A stretch of DNA of 64,000 nucleotides, from the sequence record NC_102531.1; one strand, given 5' to 3'. Below the pieces are notes generated by a model. It saw only the letters and a list, made by a program, of their open reading frames with translations. It was not told the DNA's origin and did no database searches. Of the stretch, positions 3,739-37,555 are shown in pieces. Position 1 is the first letter of the stretch, and each line of letters begins with the position of its first letter. The stretch is from a phage. A program made the position numbers and the translations under genes.

Positions 3739-3993
3739 TTAACGATAATCATCGTACGCTTTATTAACCTGGCGAATATAACATTCAAAAGCCAGATCAA
3801 TAGATTTATATTCACGGATATATTCACCATAGGAAACAACATACATTTCTATAGCTTCCTCATATGCGAGGAGAATAGAATCTAAGCCTACGATCTCAGT
3901 CTTTGCAATAATAGCCATGATTTTTATCCTCTTTGTGGTTGGTGGGGCTTGTTCCTTTGATTTATATTCTACAGTCTTATAAGGCCATGTCAA
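3739..3993 (-). CDS. Hypothetical protein (84 aa)
   Basis: ORF. Confidence 0.45.
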   Translation of the reverse strand: MTWPYKTVEYKSKEQAPPTTKRIKIMAIIAKTEIVGLDSILLAYEEAIEMYVVSYGEYIREYKSIDLAFECYIRQVNKAYDDYR

Positions 3994-4251
3994 CTATTTT
4001 TCAAAAAATTTTTCTGCTGTGATATTCTTCCCGGTAGGGTTCGCTACTTTCAAAATTTTATCATGCACTGGACGCCCAAAAGAATAAGCGCCGTACACAG
4101 TAAACCAATAATCGCCGTCAGGCTGTACTATTACCGCCGCATATGGTACGCCTTTTTCGTTATTGCTGACAAAATAGATCACATTGCCATTAATAGCCTC
4201 AGCGCGTTTAATTTGTTCCATCATGATAGTTTGCCTCTTTTTATTTTTCAT
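3994..4251 (-). CDS. Hypothetical protein (85 aa)
   Basis: ORF abutting the upstream gene. Confidence 0.45.
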   Translation of the reverse strand: MKNKKRQTIMMEQIKRAEAINGNVIYFVSNNEKGVPYAAVIVQPDGDYWFTVYGAYSFGRPVHDKILKVANPTGKNITAEKFFEK

Positions 4252-4286
4252 AATTTCAGGCGGGGGCCTTTTCGGCCCCGCCAGGT

Positions 4287-4619
4287 TTATTTATTGATAG
4301 CGTGCAGCGGGAAAGCTACGCCAGGTTGATAGATAACCTTTACAACCTCATCAGGACAAAAGAAATTGCAGAACTCACCGCAATAGGCCTCATCCTCTTT
4401 CAACTCTTCATCAACATACTCAAAAAAGTAGTCGATGCTTGGATAATCTTGCCCTGGGTTATAGTCAACCATTGTCAGGACTAGTTCAAGATCGTTGCGT
4501 AGGATATGCATACCCGCTTTTAAGTATTTTGCTTCCATTTCTACTACATCGCCAGCGGTAACAATAGCCATGGTTTTAACTCCTGTTTCTGTTAATGATT
4601 GGGGGCCGCCCCTTGACAC
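4287..4619 (-). CDS. Hypothetical protein (110 aa)
   Basis: ORF. Confidence 0.5.
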   Translation of the reverse strand: MSRGGPQSLTETGVKTMAIVTAGDVVEMEAKYLKAGMHILRNDLELVLTMVDYNPGQDYPSIDYFFEYVDEELKEDEAYCGEFCNFFCPDEVVKVIYQPGVAFPLHAINK

Positions 4620-28302: not shown

Positions 28303-29669
28303 ACGTCCCCCTCTTCTGCTCTGGTTTCAAAATCTTTCCTGACAATTTTGTCTAAGTCAGGAAAGGTTGTATTGTAAAACTCTACGACTCGCGGGTCAAC
28401 AATAATGTCAACTTCTCTTAGTGGACGCAACAAGTTTATTCCTTGTATTGTCTTAACTCGACTCAAAGCAACATACGTCATCCCAGGAGAGAAAGCTCCG
28501 TTCTTTCCAAGGTCCAGGTTGTAACAATCTAGCGTAAGTCCTTGACTTTTATGAGATGTTACGGCGTACCCAGATTTCAGAGGGAGTTGCTTGTATGATC
28601 CAATCACTACCCTCTCTATAAACTTCTCCATCTTCCTTTCTGCAATGTTGTATCTTTGAGATGGCTTATACTCGTTATTCTCCCACAACCTTTGTTCTAT
28701 GTCAACCTGTGTTCCATCTTCAAGCTCTACCACCACCGCCTTGTTCTTAAATTTAACAATTGTGGCACGTGTTCCGTTAACATAATAAGGTACTTTGTGC
28801 GTCGGGTCAACATCGTTGGCGGTTATCATAACTTTCATGCCAATTTTCAACTTCATCTCCTGCTCAACTGGCAAGGTGGAGGGAAACTTACCCTTCATTT
28901 CACCAGTGTATACCTTCTCTGGGGCGTTGATGGCATCATAGAACCTTCTGTTCACTTCCTCTGCTTGTTTGTTGGTGGCGCAAATTGTGAGAGCATCTGT
29001 TGGTACACCGCCTTTGTAACAGCGAGCATTAAGTTCTGCTACAACCTCTTTTATGCGACGACCCTCACGAACACAGTTGAGCATTGTGGCAAATCGAATA
29101 GACTCCTGTCGGAACTGATCTATTAGGGCTATGTTGTGGAGGTCAAGCTCTTTCCAAGATTCGGTATAGCAACACAGGTCCGTATGGTAGAAGTTGAAAT
29201 AGGCTTCCTTCTCCATAGAAGAGACAACAGGAGGTGCCTGGTAAAAATCGCCAAACAATATGACCTGTATGCCTCCGAAAGGTTTGTCATTTTTTCGAAG
29301 GAAGCGGAGTTTCCTATCCATCTCTATAAACTTATCAGCACGGATCATAGAGATTTCATCGATAATTAGGATGGTAAATGCCTTGCTTTTCAAAGGCTTT
29401 GCTGTTTTTGCCCTTATTGCGGTCCAATCTGACTCCATGCTCACACCTGCTGCAAGATCGAAGGTTCGGTGTGCTGTTGCTCCATTAACGTTTAAAGCGG
29501 CTACCCCTGTCGGGGCAACCGTTATGCAAGAGTCTCCATACATCGACTGGATCATGTTGATGAGATACGTCTTCCCACAACCTGCAGGTCCTGAAACGAA
29601 GACATTCTCACCACTCATGATTGCAACGAGGGCAGCATCTGTGCCTACATCATACTGCCCTTTTTCCAT
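28299..29669 (-). CDS. SF1B DNA helicase, Pif1/RecD/Dda-like
   Basis: Walker A GPAGCGKT, APTGVAA, Walker B IIDEISM, GDFYQAPPV, TSHKSQG. Confidence 0.8.
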   Translation of the reverse strand: MEKGQYDVGTDAALVAIMSGENVFVSGPAGCGKTYLINMIQSMYGDSCITVAPTGVAALNVNGATAHRTFDLAAGVSMESDWTAIRAKTAKPLKSKAFTILIIDEISMIRADKFIEMDRKLRFLRKNDKPFGGIQVILFGDFYQAPPVVSSMEKEAYFNFYHTDLCCYTESWKELDLHNIALIDQFRQESIRFATMLNCVREGRRIKEVVAELNARCYKGGVPTDALTICATNKQAEEVNRRFYDAINAPEKVYTGEMKGKFPSTLPVEQEMKLKIGMKVMITANDVDPTHKVPYYVNGTRATIVKFKNKAVVVELEDGTQVDIEQRLWENNEYKPSQRYNIAERKMEKFIERVVIGSYKQLPLKSGYAVTSHKSQGLTLDCYNLDLGKNGAFSPGMTYVALSRVKTIQGINLLRPLREVDIIVDPRVVEFYNTTFPDLDKIVRKDFETRAEEGDV

Positions 29670-30874
29670 TACGCCTCCTCGTAAAGAATGTCGATAGTGT
29701 TACCGTCACGATCAACTACATATTCAATAGGGTCTCCATCTTTGCGTGCTTCCGGAGCTACCACAATCTCATAGCGGCATGCACGGCACTTAGCGCTATT
29801 GTGTTGGTATGGCACACTAACCACATCTGCAGGGTCAACCATAACAGTCATTACAGTGCCGTAGCTCTTTGCATACTCTTTGCTGGCGCAGTGTAAGCCA
29901 TAGGAGCACGCAGCTTCCGGATCATCCTCTACAAAGTTACGAGGCATGGATACAAAAGCCCCCTGGTATTGTGGAACTTTACCACTGTGCCAATCCACCC
30001 ACTTGCTGCCGTTAAACTGAACCCCTTTGTAGCAAATGATTCGACCATCTTCTGCAATCTGAATATCATTGGCCTGCATAAAATCGTAGAGCATGTTTAC
30101 AGATTTTGCAGAAGGATTGCGTAGCAGGCGAACGAGGAATTTCACATAGCGGTCATCCAGTGTTCCGTCTGCATAATCTTTCTCAATTTTCTTTGCAATG
30201 GTGGATCGCATCTCTACACCGTAGTAGTAGAGCTTACCATCTTTCATGATCAGGTTGTCTGCAAGTGTGGTGAACTCATTCTTGCGTTCCAGCCAGACAA
30301 GGATTTCACCAATTGCCTCGTCATATTCCTGAACAGAGATATGGTCGAAGACTTTCTGGTAAACTTCCTCACTTTCGCTGCGGCGAATTTCAAAAATGCC
30401 TTCGTTGCAGGTAATCTGGAGGAGTTCCCCACAAATAACTACCAAAGGCTCAATGCTTCGAGTCTGTTGCTGAGACACACTGCTCACCACCTCCAGCACC
30501 GGATCTTTGACTTCTATTGAAGGTTCTTCTGACTTGATTGCTACCCCAGTGAACCCCACACCGTGAACAACACACAGTGGGTATACCACGCCCCAACGTT
30601 TAACGGAACCTTCGCCTAAATCTAAGATCATGGCGTACTTACCGTTATCTTCCAGACCGTATCGAAATAAACGGGCCTCTTCGCGGGTTTCAAAATCCTC
30701 ACGGGTGTAGCAGACGCTGTCACGGTCAGGATCGAACAACTCTGGGGCACCCACTGCCAGTGTCCAGGTTGTGTCGCCTTTCTCAATGGCACATGTGAAA
30801 CCCTTCTTCTCAAGTTCTGCACGGCGGTCTCGTGCTTCTTTACGGGTTTTGAAATGTTCGTAGATGAAAATCAT
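29669..30874 (-). CDS. Hypothetical protein (401 aa), partner of the GHKL ATPase
   Basis: Long ORF immediately downstream of the GHKL gene; no motif recognised. Confidence 0.55.
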   Translation of the reverse strand: MIFIYEHFKTRKEARDRRAELEKKGFTCAIEKGDTTWTLAVGAPELFDPDRDSVCYTREDFETREEARLFRYGLEDNGKYAMILDLGEGSVKRWGVVYPLCVVHGVGFTGVAIKSEEPSIEVKDPVLEVVSSVSQQQTRSIEPLVVICGELLQITCNEGIFEIRRSESEEVYQKVFDHISVQEYDEAIGEILVWLERKNEFTTLADNLIMKDGKLYYYGVEMRSTIAKKIEKDYADGTLDDRYVKFLVRLLRNPSAKSVNMLYDFMQANDIQIAEDGRIICYKGVQFNGSKWVDWHSGKVPQYQGAFVSMPRNFVEDDPEAACSYGLHCASKEYAKSYGTVMTVMVDPADVVSVPYQHNSAKCRACRYEIVVAPEARKDGDPIEYVVDRDGNTIDILYEEA

Positions 30875-30884
30875 CTTGGTCTCC

Positions 30885-32867
30885 TTATTTGATGTTATTC
30901 TTTGTATCGATCAGTTCACGGTATTCAATCATAGCAGGAGTGTCCCAATATTTCAAGCCTACATGCTTCAAAAGTGGGTATTTCTTTTCCAATCTTGCAA
31001 TATAGGCCTTCCCGCATTTAACTCGGTTGGCGATTAAGATTTTGGCACGATGATTTAGCTCGCTGTGCTTCCACGCGGTGTTACCTTCCCACTTGTGGAA
31101 ATGTGGCCGATAATTTCCAAAATCTTGCATGGGAATAATTTTCCCTAATTGTCTATACAGGCTGTCATATGAAGTTTCATTTGCTGCGCGAGTCAGTAAG
31201 AATTTCCAGGCGTCCTCTTTCAACAAATGTTCCACATTCTTCTCTGTAACATACTGGCAATCAGGATCAGTCCAAAGCAGACGAGATTCTGATACCAGGT
31301 ACAGATCTTCCCCTTCAGGAATCTGGAGTGCCGCACGCACACGGTCATAATTTTGCTGGTAGATGTTACTCATCTGTCCCAGCCAGCAGCTTCCCCGTTG
31401 GATATCTCCCTCATAAGGGATGCAATGCTTAATCTTCTTGAACTCTGCCTTCGTGAGGCGCTCACGATGGAAGTAGCCATCCTCTCTAAGCTTCTTAACC
31501 CAGTAACCCGGCTCGTAACGAGTTTTGGTTTCACCTTTCTTCGAAGGTCGGCGTGGAAGCTCAGATAATAATTTTACCGTATCTGCAAAGAACGGGTGGT
31601 GTGCCGCCTCTTTAAACTCTTTCACCAGATCCGTGTTCCGACAATAGAAAACGTTGCGTCCGGTGATCTCGCTTAAGTAGTTACACTTATTCCGGTTATA
31701 TTTGCCGTCTCCGTCGTTAAATACTAAATAGACTCCCCGTAGGAATTCTACCTTTCCGTAGCAGGAGTAGCCTATGCGGCCTTTATTTAAGCCGCCAGCG
31801 AAGATCTCACAATCTCCCAAACTTCCTAGTCCTGTCTCTTCCCATCGGTCCCACATAAAATTCTTACCGAAGATGTGCCCGAACACTCCACTGTTCTTCA
31901 TCATCTCGCGTGCTTCTGAGGATGTTTTTGCTGTCTCCAATTCCGCAACAACTTCTGCCCCACGAAGACGGATACCTTCTTTGACAAAAGCCTCCAGACG
32001 CTCTTGGAATCCACCATCGTCGTGCCCCTCTATGGTCCATTCGCGCCCAGGATTAATATTGCAATCCCCGATAGGGATCTCTACACAGATTGCAGGGTAG
32101 TCTGTCAATGTTTCCAGAAACTTAGAGCGGTAAGGTTGGTGTCCCATCACCACACGGCTCTCATCAGAGCTGGTATAACCTTTCAGGATGGTCATTTTCC
32201 AACCATCTTTCTCGTAGCGATACTGCGCCTCAACCTTGTCACCTTCCAGCATCTTACTGGTCATAGGGTCGGTAACGGTAAACGGAAACTTTGCATAGCG
32301 TAGGCATGACGCAATAGCAGTGCGATATTTCAGAACATGCTCTTTCTTAACATGGAACTGAACTTTTACCCCGTTGTGCTCTTCAGTCTTCCGCTCGCGG
32401 ATCTTGGTAACGTTTGGGATACCCTGATCCAAGAACAACAGATATGTGCTTTCAACACCGTTGTGCACACTGATCACATCGAAAGTGTCCACCATGCTGA
32501 ACGGGGCCTTTGAACCTACACCTTTATTACCTACCAGAGCGTTGCTGTTGCGCTTGGTTGACTCCCCGAGGTTCATGAAAGTGTTGCGGACCATCTCTTC
32601 CGACATGCCCAATCCAACGTCCTGCACAAAGAAGTATGGTTCAAGGTCTGTAGGAGAGTGAATGATGATCGGTACATCACCCCGTCCAGACTCAACATGG
32701 GAGTCCACAGCATTGAAGATTGGTTCACGGCAGCTTGCCAGCACCTTATCTTCGTAAATCCCTTTAATGATTAGCCCAAAAGTCTCTTTGTTCAGAGAAA
32801 TTGAGCCCCTGGTGACCTCCATATTTCCGGTTAGTACTGCTTTAGTTTCATTACTGTTTACAATCAT
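30885..32867 (-). CDS. GHKL-family ATPase domain protein (660 aa), rIIA-like candidate
   Basis: Bergerat-fold motifs: N-box EPIFNAVDS, G1 VQDVGLGMS, G2 GNKGVGSKAPF; the long C-terminal region is unassigned. Confidence 0.6.
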   Translation of the reverse strand: MIVNSNETKAVLTGNMEVTRGSISLNKETFGLIIKGIYEDKVLASCREPIFNAVDSHVESGRGDVPIIIHSPTDLEPYFFVQDVGLGMSEEMVRNTFMNLGESTKRNSNALVGNKGVGSKAPFSMVDTFDVISVHNGVESTYLLFLDQGIPNVTKIRERKTEEHNGVKVQFHVKKEHVLKYRTAIASCLRYAKFPFTVTDPMTSKMLEGDKVEAQYRYEKDGWKMTILKGYTSSDESRVVMGHQPYRSKFLETLTDYPAICVEIPIGDCNINPGREWTIEGHDDGGFQERLEAFVKEGIRLRGAEVVAELETAKTSSEAREMMKNSGVFGHIFGKNFMWDRWEETGLGSLGDCEIFAGGLNKGRIGYSCYGKVEFLRGVYLVFNDGDGKYNRNKCNYLSEITGRNVFYCRNTDLVKEFKEAAHHPFFADTVKLLSELPRRPSKKGETKTRYEPGYWVKKLREDGYFHRERLTKAEFKKIKHCIPYEGDIQRGSCWLGQMSNIYQQNYDRVRAALQIPEGEDLYLVSESRLLWTDPDCQYVTEKNVEHLLKEDAWKFLLTRAANETSYDSLYRQLGKIIPMQDFGNYRPHFHKWEGNTAWKHSELNHRAKILIANRVKCGKAYIARLEKKYPLLKHVGLKYWDTPAMIEYRELIDTKNNIK

Positions 32868-33364
32868 TTATTGCGCTCCTTGTAGTAGATATGACTCCCG
32901 AATTGAGCTGTCCTCTGCATCTTTTTTGCCCATTTCGGTCGTACTTTGGTTGTATGGTAGTGTGTTGCTCCACCTGTTATGTCCATAGCCATGTATGCAA
33001 CATGGTTGTTATTATAGACCTTTAGAAGCATCTTTGCAAGACTTTTAGCGTGATCCCATGAATCTTTTTCTGTCACCTTAAAAGTTTTGCCGTGGTTTGT
33101 CCACGAAAACTGGTTAGGTTGGTAGACAATCTTTCTTATAGTGTCTGGGTATTTGGGGTGAGATTTCCTGTTTAGTGTGGCAAACCCTGATGCCAGCATA
33201 CCCATCGTGCCATCCCCTCTAGCCTCCCTGTAGATATTGCATGCCAGAATGTTTTCCTTAGTATCTGAGGGCTTGCAAGTATGATATACTTTTTGTTTTG
33301 GTGCTGCAACAACAGGCAGCGATAAAAGTGCGCTCAAAATAATAGCAAAGATCTTAATTTTCAC
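32864..33364 (-). CDS. Secreted cell-wall hydrolase, SleB/CwlJ-like (candidate endolysin)
   Basis: Signal peptide MKIKIFAIILSALLSLPVVA; NIYREARG...QPNQFSW motif; GTG start; ATGA overlap with the GHKL gene. Confidence 0.6.
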   Translation of the reverse strand: MKIKIFAIILSALLSLPVVAAPKQKVYHTCKPSDTKENILACNIYREARGDGTMGMLASGFATLNRKSHPKYPDTIRKIVYQPNQFSWTNHGKTFKVTEKDSWDHAKSLAKMLLKVYNNNHVAYMAMDITGGATHYHTTKVRPKWAKKMQRTAQFGSHIYYKERNK

Positions 33365-33369
33365 AATGA

Positions 33370-33400
33370 CTCCAAATAGAAAATCCCCGCCGAAGCGGGG
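33370..33400 (-). terminator. Intrinsic terminator (CCCCGCTTCGGCGGGG then ATTTTCTATTT)
   Basis: Same 16-nt hairpin as at 59811..59826. Confidence 0.55.
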
Positions 33401-33412
33401 AGGTCTTAGAAA

Positions 33413-33841
33413 TTAATCGTAGTGTGCCAAAATCTCTCCATCGTTGCAAGTTCCCTCTACAAAGTTATGAAGATTCATGCACTCATCTTGATAGAAGAAT
33501 TTACCGCTTTTCAGCCGTAGGCCAAACAACTCCGCATCTCCACGATGGCAAGCCTCTACAAGTTCATAGATTTCATACGGCAACTCTCCGTCGTCATGGA
33601 AGAATCCAGCCTTATCGTTGACATAAATGAAGAAATAATCACTGCTATCGCAAGCATCCAATATTTTAAACCAGATTTCATCTACATCTTTTTCTCGGAT
33701 ATCGATCACGCAAGTGGAGCTGCATTCGTACTCCTTCTCCGGCTCCTCGGTCAATACCACCAGGTAGTTTCCCCGCTTACCTACTTTAGCCATACAACCC
33801 CCCTTAAGCTTTAGCCAAAATGGCGCTAAACTCTTCACCAA
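33413..33841 (-). CDS. Hypothetical Cys-containing protein (142 aa)
   Basis: ORF. Confidence 0.45.
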   Translation of the reverse strand: MVKSLAPFWLKLKGGCMAKVGKRGNYLVVLTEEPEKEYECSSTCVIDIREKDVDEIWFKILDACDSSDYFFIYVNDKAGFFHDDGELPYEIYELVEACHRGDAELFGLRLKSGKFFYQDECMNLHNFVEGTCNDGEILAHYD

Positions 33842-34988: not shown

Positions 34989-35257
34989 TAGTAAAAGTCC
35001 TCTACTTGTGTGTAAGTGTTTTCAAAGTTTTCCAAAACAGATATCACATCGAATCTGTCAATATCATACGTGACTCTCCAGTTGTACGCAACCCTTTCTG
35101 CTGTTGCCTCTTCTGGCGCTAGTCGTCTGCTGGCATAAAAGAGTGTTGGAGTACACTTTCTTGCTTGCCCTCTAACTTTCCCATAATAATATCTGTGAAT
35201 ATCTTTGTCAAAATTTAACTCTTTTTCTGCACGAAGTTCATATTGCTGGTATAACAT
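34988..35257 (-). CDS. Hypothetical protein (89 aa)
   Basis: ORF. Confidence 0.45.
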   Translation of the reverse strand: MLYQQYELRAEKELNFDKDIHRYYYGKVRGQARKCTPTLFYASRRLAPEEATAERVAYNWRVTYDIDRFDVISVLENFENTYTQVEDFY

Positions 35258-37526: not shown

Positions 37527-37555
37527 ACTATATTGTGGAGTTAGAGTAAAGTCAA
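37527..37555 (-). promoter_or_regulatory. Sigma70-like promoter in the divergent region (-35 TTGACT, 17-nt spacer, -10 TATAGT)
   Basis: Hexamers and spacing read directly. Confidence 0.45.

Follow-up and report, generated by a model that had tools for sequence, protein, structure and literature searches.

A previously annotated SleB-like cell-wall hydrolase of a Vequintavirus carries a predicted Sec signal and probably acts as an accessory murein hydrolase

In the rV5 genome, gp2 was annotated in 2013 as 'cell wall hydrolase, PF07486' (Kropinski et al. 2013, PMC3606486), and in 2020 the SleB-like proteins of the Vequintavirinae were reported to possess a signal peptide, to be present in all genera and to be toxic in E. 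coli (Buttimer et al. 2020, PMC7344957). Toxicity of CB7_83, the homologue from Certrevirus with a reported signal peptide, is given as 'data not shown', and the same paper groups the CR3 homologue with host lysis (PMC7344957). In Pseudomonas phage PAK_P3, the Hydrolase_2 protein gp151 begins with a membrane or export segment, and its gene is surrounded by ligase and helicase genes (PMC4933390). Its transcripts are equal early and late (log2FC of 0.62, not significant), and the authors proposed an auxiliary wall hydrolase and tied gp151 to wall-precursor accumulation, the putative endolysin being a separate gene, gp28 (Chevallereau et al. 2016, PMC4933390). A literature search on phages of Gram-negative bacteria found no Hydrolase_2 protein that had been characterised biochemically. 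Two candidates for such a phage example were rejected: LysV039C is of another family, and Pae87, the solved lysin of Pseudomonas phage JG004, was dropped; the PaGz-1 homologue matches SleB structures alone in the PDB.

We analysed a 64,000-nucleotide stretch of phage DNA (NC_102531.1), hereafter the window. The source phage is a Vequintavirus, an rV5-like E. coli phage with 97%–98% identity to more than 100 GenBank phages. The gene under study is the following:

32864..33364, minus strand: coding sequence of the SleB-like (Hydrolase_2) cell-wall hydrolase, 166 aa, with a GTG start at 33364..33362; corresponds to rV5 gp2.

The protein is 98%–99% identical to the products of genes annotated 'cell wall hydrolase SleB' in more than 100 phages. 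Compared with rV5 gp2 and the Vequintavirus orthologues, it is the same gene, with the same length of 166 aa, 98%–99% identity, the same GTG, the same terminator t003 upstream and the same 4-nt rIIA overlap (PMC3606486). There is no substantive difference from rV5 gp2, and the window represents a further isolate of Vequintavirus. The gene is real but already known: its annotation dates from 2013, an account of the signal peptide and of the conservation followed in 2020, and the gene call itself contributes nothing new.

A first-pass annotation of the window had assigned the product to the SleB/CwlJ-type hydrolases, and this catalytic-domain family is confirmed by Pfam, PHROG and fold. Residues 51–161 match positions 2–100 of the 100 positions of the PF07486 (Hydrolase_2) profile with 70.4 bits against a cutoff of 27 (E = 2.1e-19), and the protein matches PHROG 938 'endolysin' with E = 1.6e-27. 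Searching the PDB via Foldseek with the AF2 model (pLDDT of 88.8) gave significant matches solely to the SleB structures 4F55 and 4FET, with a probability of 1.00, a target-normalised TM of 0.72–0.79 and an rmsd of 2.7–3.0. The family motif (Y/F)xE(A/S)RGE is present as YREARGD, which harbors the putative catalytic residue:

33224..33226, minus strand: codon of Glu47 in the motif YREARGD, equivalent to the catalytic glutamate of SleB, invariant in a 16-sequence alignment and aligned with YGESRGE of B. cereus SleB (4F55).

In the same alignment, from which residue invariance was taken, E47, R66, Q85, S87, D128, T130, G132, W145 and Y161 are invariant in homologues down to 31% identity. The SleB equivalog model TIGR02869 is matched below its cutoff (48.3 against 236.5 bits) and at profile positions 82–201 alone; Pfam detected no N-terminal PG-binding domain, and the catalytic domain is the sole domain. 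With a single domain and the catalytic Glu kept, the hydrolase belongs to the SleB/CwlJ (Hydrolase_2) family, and is predicted from its sequence to cleave murein.

The catalytic domain is preceded by an N-terminal segment with the features of an export signal:

33305..33364, minus strand: predicted Sec signal peptide, aa 1–20, MKIKIFAIILSALLSLPVVA, on the grounds of hydrophobicity, a low-pLDDT N-terminal helix and export signals in homologues.

The N-terminus, MKIKIFAIILSALLSLPVVAA followed by PKQ, comprises a basic n-region (K2/K4), a strongly hydrophobic core (I5–L16; mean Kyte-Doolittle of 2.69 over 15 aa) and a small-residue c-region (V18-V19-A20/A21). Judged by the rules for signal peptidase I, cleavage would most likely occur between A20 and A21; this position is preferred because Pro22 at +1 disfavours a cut between A21 and P22. 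The core IFAIILSALLSL, with a mean KD of 2.7, does not resemble the weakly hydrophobic, Gly/Ala/Ser-rich TMD of the SAR type, and no small membrane protein that might serve as a pinholin partner adjoins the gene in the window. Of 78 IMG/VR homologues, at least 75 have an N-terminal export signal, in some cases of the lipoprotein type. The GenBank homologues examined, from Certrevirus, Stephanstirmvirinae, T5-like phages and Pakpunavirus, all have one too, and near homologues have textbook cleavage sites (AQA/E, ALA/K and VLA/K). The signal peptide and holin-independent export that had been proposed for the protein are supported at the level of sequence: given the Sec-type N-terminus, access to the periplasm should need no holin.

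On its 5′ side, the gene is immediately preceded by a terminator and a ribosome-binding site:

33384..33401, minus strand: intrinsic terminator stem-loop (rV5 t003), TCCCCGC-TTCG-GCGGGGA, which closes the upstream MoxR/gp3 genes and is an annotated terminator in Murica.

33374..33383, minus strand: interrupted T-tract of the terminator, TTTTCTATTT, as read from the sequence.

33370..33373, minus strand: Shine-Dalgarno GGAG of the hydrolase gene, abutting the T-tract 5 nt ahead of the GTG, and an annotated RBS in Murica.

The hairpin is identical to rV5 terminator t003, which has a dG of −16 kcal/mol (rV5 Table S4, PMC3606486). The GTG start had been described as overlapping the terminator T-run; the start codon is correct and the overlap is not, since the order is T-tract, GGAG, TCATT and GTG, with the Shine-Dalgarno sequence abutting the T-tract. 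The same layout of hairpin, T-tract and Shine-Dalgarno sequence is also seen in the Klebsiella, Certrevirus and PaGz-1 homologues, and GTG or TTG is the start codon throughout the rIIA-linked clade. As a terminator directly before the RBS and a weak start codon recur in all relatives keeping the rIIA linkage, this arrangement points to a deliberately low expression of the hydrolase.

The nearest published promoter upstream lies 4 kb from the gene, with no published promoter in between:

37527..37555, minus strand: leftward sigma70-consensus promoter (rV5 P010), TTGACT-17-TATAGT.

In rV5, a transcription unit has been proposed for genes 10-1-238-164 (PMC3606486). An 11/12 sigma70-like site at 35211..35183 likewise lies upstream of t003. 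Inside the hydrolase gene, a TTGCAA-17-TATAAT sequence at 33039..33011 could be a further start site of transcription. There may be unrecognised promoters upstream of the hydrolase gene. The hydrolase gene belongs to the leftward operon from P010, in the company of genes for replication (MoxR ATPase, rIIA/B, helicase, primase and polymerase) and outside any lysis cassette. The reported location in the replication module rather than beside a holin is borne out, the direct neighbours being gp3 and rIIA. As to the suggested early expression, the sequence places the gene in an early operon read from a host-type promoter, and the timing in the phage would follow from that position; a literature search found no Vequintavirus transcriptome. 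The upstream neighbour gp3 is listed in rV5 as a T5.083 homologue. Searching nine homologous loci of T5-like and other phages for a conserved gp3–SleB pair via tblastn with gp3 and MoxR gave no match.

On its 3′ side, the gene runs into the rII genes:

30885..32867, minus strand: rIIA, 660 aa, with an N-terminal GHKL/HATPase_c_3 domain (PHROG 612, PF13589; annotated rIIA in relatives).

29669..30874, minus strand: rIIB, 401 aa (PHROG 609, E = 1.4e-61; annotations in relatives).

32876..32881, minus strand: Shine-Dalgarno sequence of rIIA, AAGGAG, located 8 nt ahead of the rIIA ATG and still within the 3′ end of the hydrolase gene; an RBS is annotated there in Murica.

The downstream neighbour had been called a GHKL ATPase. 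A GHKL-type domain is indeed present (PF13589, 34.9 bits against a cutoff of 25), and the identity of the gene was missed: it is rIIA (PHROG 612, E = 3.2e-124 over residues 1–658), followed by rIIB. The annotation in relatives names rIIA/rIIB 'membrane integrity protector'. The hydrolase and rIIA genes overlap in an exact ATGA, with the rIIA ATG at 32867..32865 and the hydrolase TGA at 32866..32864. The translational coupling read from it is possible yet would not be required, because rIIA has its own strong Shine-Dalgarno sequence. The 4-nt overlap was rejected as a noteworthy trait, since genes often overlap in this genome: across 24.5 kb of annotated sequence from a phage of 97% identity, the 35 gene junctions include 10 overlaps, of which 4 measure 4 nt. 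Among the IMG/VR loci, rIIA lies downstream of the hydrolase gene in 12 of 78, plus two cut by contig ends, and is absent beside the homologous gene in Certrevirus, Stephanstirmvirinae, T5-like and Pak-like phages. A deep functional linkage of sleB and rIIA was also rejected, since rIIA downstream is confined to the clade at ≥51% identity.

For the comparison with other phages, loci were taken from GenBank and IMG/VR. CB7_83 and the other Vequintavirinae SleB-like proteins are orthologous to the protein here at 42%–47% identity, with a predicted signal peptide and a catalytic domain in common (PMC7344957). Like the gene here, their genes are found in the replication region, upstream of the helicase, with a hairpin and T-tract before the Shine-Dalgarno sequence. 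The Certrevirus gene differs in having an ATG start, no rIIA/rIIB, and a 65-aa two-TM holin candidate overlapping its 3′ end, where rIIA sits in the window (PMC7344957). In sister genera, a two-TM holin-like ORF of 51–66 aa lies directly 3′ of the hydrolase gene (also PMC7344957); no relocated copy of it was found in the window or the whole Murica genome, where the search returned noise only (best E = 0.03). PAK_P3 gp151 shares 36% identity with the hydrolase here and differs in an N-terminus resembling an uncleaved anchor, no rII neighbour and an ATG start. The N-terminal TM segment of the Pakpunavirus and Nankokuvirus homologues lacks a basic n-region and any clear cleavage site. In small Vibrio phages of ~42–47 kb, the Hydrolase_2 family is annotated as their endolysin.

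The usual lysis genes of rV5-like phages are encoded apart from the hydrolase. The rV5 gp89, which is Murica gp198, is a canonical GH24 protein and the 'obvious lysin' (PMC3606486), and its homologue LysECP26 from an rV5-like phage is muralytic in vitro according to the literature. Rz/Rz1 spanins adjoin TerL in rV5-like genomes, and gp129 is a holin candidate. The GH24 lysin, spanins and holin candidate are absent from the window (tblastn E > 3). The hydrolase is unlike a canonical holin-dependent endolysin in that it has an N-terminal signal-peptide-like segment and adjoins gp3 and rIIA rather than a holin or spanin. Among the Vequintavirinae genera, the canonical lysin varies between GH24, GH19 and M15, and the SleB-like gene is retained in all. 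The first-pass annotation had named the protein an endolysin, a role that a canonical lysis cassette elsewhere in the genome would speak against. On circumstantial grounds that role is unlikely, since lysis genes do exist outside the window; they are scattered and do not form one cassette.

Because these usual lysis genes lie elsewhere in the genome, the gene 2 product probably has an accessory role; it would be a Sec-exported murein hydrolase made at a low level in the early/middle phase. In the corresponding model, host RNA polymerase would transcribe gene 2 from the early/middle leftward operon solely via read-through of t003, and inefficient initiation at the GTG would yield small amounts of the hydrolase. 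Afterwards, the Sec system would bring it to the periplasm without any holin, where the conserved Cys30/Cys42 pair could make a disulfide. In the course of the latent period, the periplasmic enzyme would then cut glycan strands in the sacculus of the host, serving as an accessory enzyme of murein loosening or turnover, either for lysis priming or for wall-precursor release. Finally, lysis would be executed by the GH24 lysin, holin and spanins encoded elsewhere.

Some evidence is also consistent with a genuine second endolysin, which would be exported via Sec, held as a restrained periplasmic pool and take a direct part in final lysis, in the manner of SAR endolysins and of the exported endolysins known from some Gram-positive phages, with the GH24 lysin redundant or condition-specific. 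PHROG 938 and many GenBank records say 'endolysin', as do the annotations of the Vibrio phages; the CR3 homologue is assigned to host lysis, and toxicity is reported for the CB7 homologue (PMC7344957); and a holin-like ORF directly follows the gene in the sister genera. However, the 'endolysin' labels are annotations rather than tests, the holin-like ORF does not adjoin the gene in this phage and lacks a homologue in the rest of the genome, and no restraint mechanism is visible in the sequence. Furthermore, a terminator before the gene, a GTG start and an early operon are the opposite of what a late abundant lysin would have, and the GH24 lysin, spanins and holin candidate in principle suffice. 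A second endolysin is unlikely on balance, if still a serious candidate. A membrane-tethered enzyme of the signal-anchor or SAR type, inactive until the membrane depolarises and tied to a holin or to rII-controlled membrane energetics, is distinctly improbable. The Pakpunavirus and Nankokuvirus N-termini, the adjoining 'membrane integrity protector' genes and a Pro at +1 that would prevent cleavage at the AXA site most evident in the sequence speak for such tethering, whereas the I/L/F-rich h-region, the acceptable site V18-x-A20/A21, the textbook sites of near homologues and a catalytic Glu 25 residues past the hydrophobic segment speak against it.

The conservation of the gene where canonical lysins are swapped suggests a distinct function, and could also fit a protein not meant to lyse the host's own wall, acting instead in another envelope function, such as the exclusion of superinfecting phages or, once released, of competing bacteria, or as a degenerate, non-catalytic wall binder. 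Given that the catalytic Glu and the remaining family-invariant residues are all kept, that a homologue is toxic when expressed (PMC7344957) and that there is no domain besides the catalytic one, we regard such a function as very improbable. Wall hydrolases that phages encode away from a lysis cassette are frequently virion proteins, and the hydrolase could as such be a virion-associated lysin that pierces murein at DNA injection. This is hardly credible here, as a cleavable Sec signal would take the protein out of the cytoplasm, where virions are assembled, the gene is in the early/replication unit rather than the structural one, and the CB7 study gives the role of virion-associated lysin to another protein, the gp25-like CB7_28 (PMC7344957).

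An exported SleB-type hydrolase, encoded in the early/replication region, is retained alongside a normal endolysin by many virulent phages that infect Gram-negative bacteria. It is conceivable, though doubtful, that exported SleB-like hydrolases form a widespread class of pre-lysis wall-remodelling enzymes, produced in the early/middle phase at an intentionally low level through terminator read-through and a weak start codon, in several unrelated groups of virulent phages (Vequintavirinae, Stephanstirmvirinae, T5-like phages, Pakpunavirus/Nankokuvirus), which in the rV5/Klebsiella/Salmonella clade would work with an adjacent small two-TM protein and/or with rIIA–rIIB holding the damaged envelope until the holin fires. 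If the accessory hydrolase remodels or weakens the wall before lysis, this would bear on lysis timing and on the still obscure role of rII. It would also affect the many database records that name the protein 'endolysin', labels that may mislead enzybiotic screens.

The phage hydrolase has its catalytic fold and catalytic Glu motif in common with the SleB/CwlJ cortex-lytic germination enzymes of Bacillus (PDB 4F55 and 4FET), from which it differs in missing the PG-binding N-terminal domain and in having a predicted Sec signal for the Gram-negative periplasm. Bacillus SleB requires muramic-delta-lactam, and E. coli murein is devoid of it; unlike the Bacillus setting, the phage host has no muramic-delta-lactam cortex. 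Exported endolysins are known in the Sec-signal Lys44 of Oenococcus phage fOg44 and the SAR endolysins P1 Lyz and R21 of phage 21, in which the host Sec system carries a murein hydrolase to the wall without a holin. Each is the sole endolysin of its phage, is made late and belongs to another catalytic family. The predicted holin-free Sec route of the hydrolase here is reminiscent of these enzymes, whereas the hydrolase coexists with a canonical cytoplasmic GH24 lysin and is encoded in an early operon.

Profile searches placed the 166-aa product of the minus-strand gene at 32864..33364 in Hydrolase_2 (PF07486; 70.4 bits, cutoff 27) and in PHROG 938, and SleB catalytic domains were the only matches in a PDB sequence search. 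The AlphaFold2 model (mean pLDDT 88.8; about 55 for residues 1–20) gave significant structural matches only to 4F55 and 4FET (probability 1.0, target-normalised TM 0.72–0.79). Glu47 of the YREARGD motif aligns to the catalytic Glu of SleB and is invariant in 16/16 homologues with identities down to 31%, as are R66, Q85, S87, D128, T130, G132, W145, and Y161. The protein is a predicted SleB-type cell-wall hydrolase, as first annotated. It falls short of the equivalog model for SleB proper, scoring 48 bits where 236.5 are required, and a PG-binding domain was not found in it. Publications of 2013 and 2020 already describe the feature; its rV5 counterpart gp2 is listed as ‘cell wall hydrolase, PF07486’ beside gp1, ‘rIIA, HATPase_c_3’ (PMC3606486). 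Across a 5.3-kb region, more than 100 phages in GenBank share 97%–98% identity with the window, which is a Vequintavirus genome, and the hydrolase is 98%–99% identical to records named ‘cell wall hydrolase SleB’ or ‘endolysin’. Between 16 and 23 unannotated ‘Campylobacter phage’ records (GenBank MG0656xx), with C. jejuni given as host, share about 97% identity here with rV5-like phages of E. coli, and their host label appears doubtful.

The N-terminus, MKIKIFAIILSALLSLPVVAAPKQ, comprises two lysines, a 12-residue core rich in I/L/F, and a Pro-Val-Val-Ala-Ala c-region. We infer signal-peptide cleavage after A20, because Pro22 would otherwise occupy +1. Textbook cleavage sites occur in homologues from Certrevirus (…SALA|KDN), phi92-like phages and Phapecoctavirus (…VAQA|EAA), Klebsiella phages (…PVLA|KES), and T5-like phages (…NSHA|TYD); the N-terminal segment is anchor-like in Pakpunavirus and Nankokuvirus. 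At least 75 of 78 scorable IMG/VR loci encode an N-terminal export signal, in some cases of lipoprotein type. The Cys30/Cys42 pair, kept across Vequintavirinae and Stephanstirmvirinae, would be compatible with a periplasmic disulfide. These predicted signals favor the proposed holin-independent export. The ‘endolysin’ CDS of Klebsiella phage K54_rec2 (127 aa; PQ569688.1, locus L006) is apparently truncated at its 5′ end; starting from a TTG at L006 3917, with GGAG upstream, the frame (3917-4447) encodes 176 aa and regains a typical signal peptide, like its IMG/VR relatives.

The start region and the upstream promoter comprise the following features.

37555..37527, minus: promoter P010, TTGACT-17-TATAGT, published for rV5 and found in the window
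33401..33384, minus: GC-rich hairpin TCCCCGC-TTCG-GCGGGGA upstream of the hydrolase gene, matching the predicted rV5 terminator t003
33383..33374, minus: interrupted T-tract TTTTCTATTT after the hairpin
33373..33370, minus: GGAG, the hydrolase ribosome-binding site, followed by TCATT and GTG
32864..33364, minus: hydrolase ORF, 166 aa, GTG start (ORF listing)

Contrary to the first-pass annotation, the GTG does not overlap the terminator T-run: it is the ribosome-binding site that directly follows the T-tract, and GGAG and TCATT separate the GTG from it, placing the start codon 9 nt past the tail. In rV5, genes 10-1-238-164 were proposed to form a leftward unit from a bidirectional promoter region (PMC3606486). 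Between P010 and gp2 the published list has no promoter, and the space from t003 to the SD is too short for one, so that transcription of gp2–rIIA–rIIB is expected to depend on read-through of t003. Lying in this leftward unit behind P010, the gene has a predicted early-operon placement, in line with the first-pass annotation. A sigma70-like site absent from the published rV5 promoter list (TTGACA-17-TATTAT, 11/12; 35183..35211, minus) lies upstream of t003, inside an 89-aa ORF directly upstream of the MoxR ATPase gene. Another (TTGCAA-17-TATAAT, 10/12 with a perfect -10; 33011..33039, minus) lies within the hydrolase gene, about 136 nt 5′ of the rIIA ATG, and could allow rIIA–rIIB transcription independent of t003 read-through; both its hexamers are unchanged in four relatives, one of them 9.6% diverged over the gene, which is not statistically significant.

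The order of hairpin, T-tract, and SD recurs in a Klebsiella K54 phage, two Certrevirus phages, and PaGz-1. Across the IMG/VR clade of at least 51% identity (14 loci scored; two more without a called start left out), 13 loci have a perfect-stem hairpin and a T-tract ending 4–6 nt before the SD window, and GTG or TTG is the start codon in all 14. In the phi92-like and Phapecoctavirus homologues, by contrast, the gene has a promoter of its own (TTGCAA-17-TACAAT or TATACT) and a TTG start. Together with the reported toxicity of the Certrevirus homologue CB7_83 in E. coli (PMC7344957), this recurrent start architecture points to a deliberately low dosage. The sole homologue transcript data concern PAK_P3 gp151, whose transcripts showed no significant change from early to late infection (log2FC 0.62, p=0.28) and which its authors suggested as explaining wall-precursor accumulation (PMC4933390); a literature search found no Vequintavirus transcriptome.

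At the 3′ end, the TGA (32866..32864) and the next ATG (32867..32865) have three bases in common, confirming the overlap. Translational coupling is possible yet not needed, since the downstream ORF has its own AAGGAG 8 nt 5′ of its ATG; overlaps are also routine, at 10 of 35 junctions (four by 4 nt) across 24.5 kb of annotated sequence from a phage 97% identical to this one. The neighbor, annotated as a GHKL ATPase, does carry an N-terminal HATPase_c_3 domain, but is more fully identified as rIIA (PHROG 612, E=3e-124). It is followed by rIIB (PHROG 609) and a helicase, and a 126-aa protein (rV5 gp3) and a MoxR-type ATPase lie upstream, which bears out the replication-region placement. rIIA overlaps sleB by 4 nt in Vequintavirus, follows it in Klebsiella phages and, among Vequintavirinae, in Salmonella phage 40 (usually with a 51–77-aa ORF between), and lies 21 nt away in one further IMG/VR lineage. 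It is absent downstream of sleB in the Certrevirus, Stephanstirmvirinae, T5-like, and Pak-like phages examined, Certrevirus missing the rII genes altogether. Judged from these loci, the linkage is limited to one lineage.

At its N-terminus, the rV5-type rIIB carries about 130 additional aa that include a SPOR-like stretch; a second similar-looking repeat follows. SPOR domains bind peptidoglycan. The match (residues 8–42; 30749..30853, minus) is partial and borderline, with 19.3 bits for the whole protein and 22.4 for residues 1–140 against a cutoff of 21, and none was found in Klebsiella rIIB; adjoining a wall hydrolase it is curious, but rIIB has no export signal. A mechanical ORF list gives 33413..33841 (minus) as a 142-aa TTG-start ORF overlapping the MoxR gene; relatives annotate an ATG start (33793) and 126 aa, and residues 17–142 match PHROG 12370. 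This protein, gp3, is listed in rV5 as a T5.083 homologue (PMC3606486), and the T5.083-type gene is not adjacent to the T5-like SleB gene.

Small holin-like ORFs adjoin sleB as the intervening ORFs of K54 and phage 40, and as a Certrevirus ORF overlapping the sleB 3′ end, for which Buttimer et al. proposed a class II holin (PMC7344957).

Two-TM holin-like ORFs (51–66 aa) directly 3′ of the SleB-like gene in sister genera (Klebsiella K54-type, Salmonella phage 40, Certrevirus)
4452-4607, locus L006
5452-5625, locus L013
4426-4623, locus L011
5060-5260, locus L008

The two groups of small proteins share no detectable similarity. The window contains no counterpart of them, and a homologue search of the whole genome of Murica, an rV5-like phage, was also empty.

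The endolysin role first assigned to the hydrolase is not supported. The rV5 paper names gp89 (Phage_lysozyme/GH24) the ‘obvious lysin’ and gp129 a holin candidate (PMC3606486); the Murica annotation puts the GH24 lysin at 70.3 kb and places the Rz/Rz1 spanins by TerL. LysECP26, which comes from another rV5-like phage and is homologous to gp89, lysed 29/29 Gram-negative strains in vitro. None of the GH24 lysin, spanins, or holin candidate was found in the window (tblastn, E>3), which corresponds approximately to Murica from 104.5 kb, across the genome end, to 33 kb. A lysis cassette elsewhere had been named as refuting the endolysin reading; this largely applies to rV5-like phages, although their lysis genes are scattered rather than in a cassette.

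The first-pass observation is thus essentially correct but incomplete, and its interpretation half right. With moderate confidence, we propose that the hydrolase, conserved, exported, and probably of low dosage, would act as an accessory enzyme in loosening or turnover of the wall ahead of lysis; its family and export are much more certain than this physiological role. The canonical lysin differs by genus (GH24 in Vequintavirus, GH19 in KPP-1 and PVP-SE1-like phages, M15 peptidase in Certrevirus and Septuagintavirus), and yet every Vequintavirinae genus retains the SleB-like gene. In PAK_P3, too, the Hydrolase_2 protein gp151 is accompanied by a second, putative endolysin, gp28. The pattern speaks for a role that is distinct and non-redundant, other than the main lytic function.
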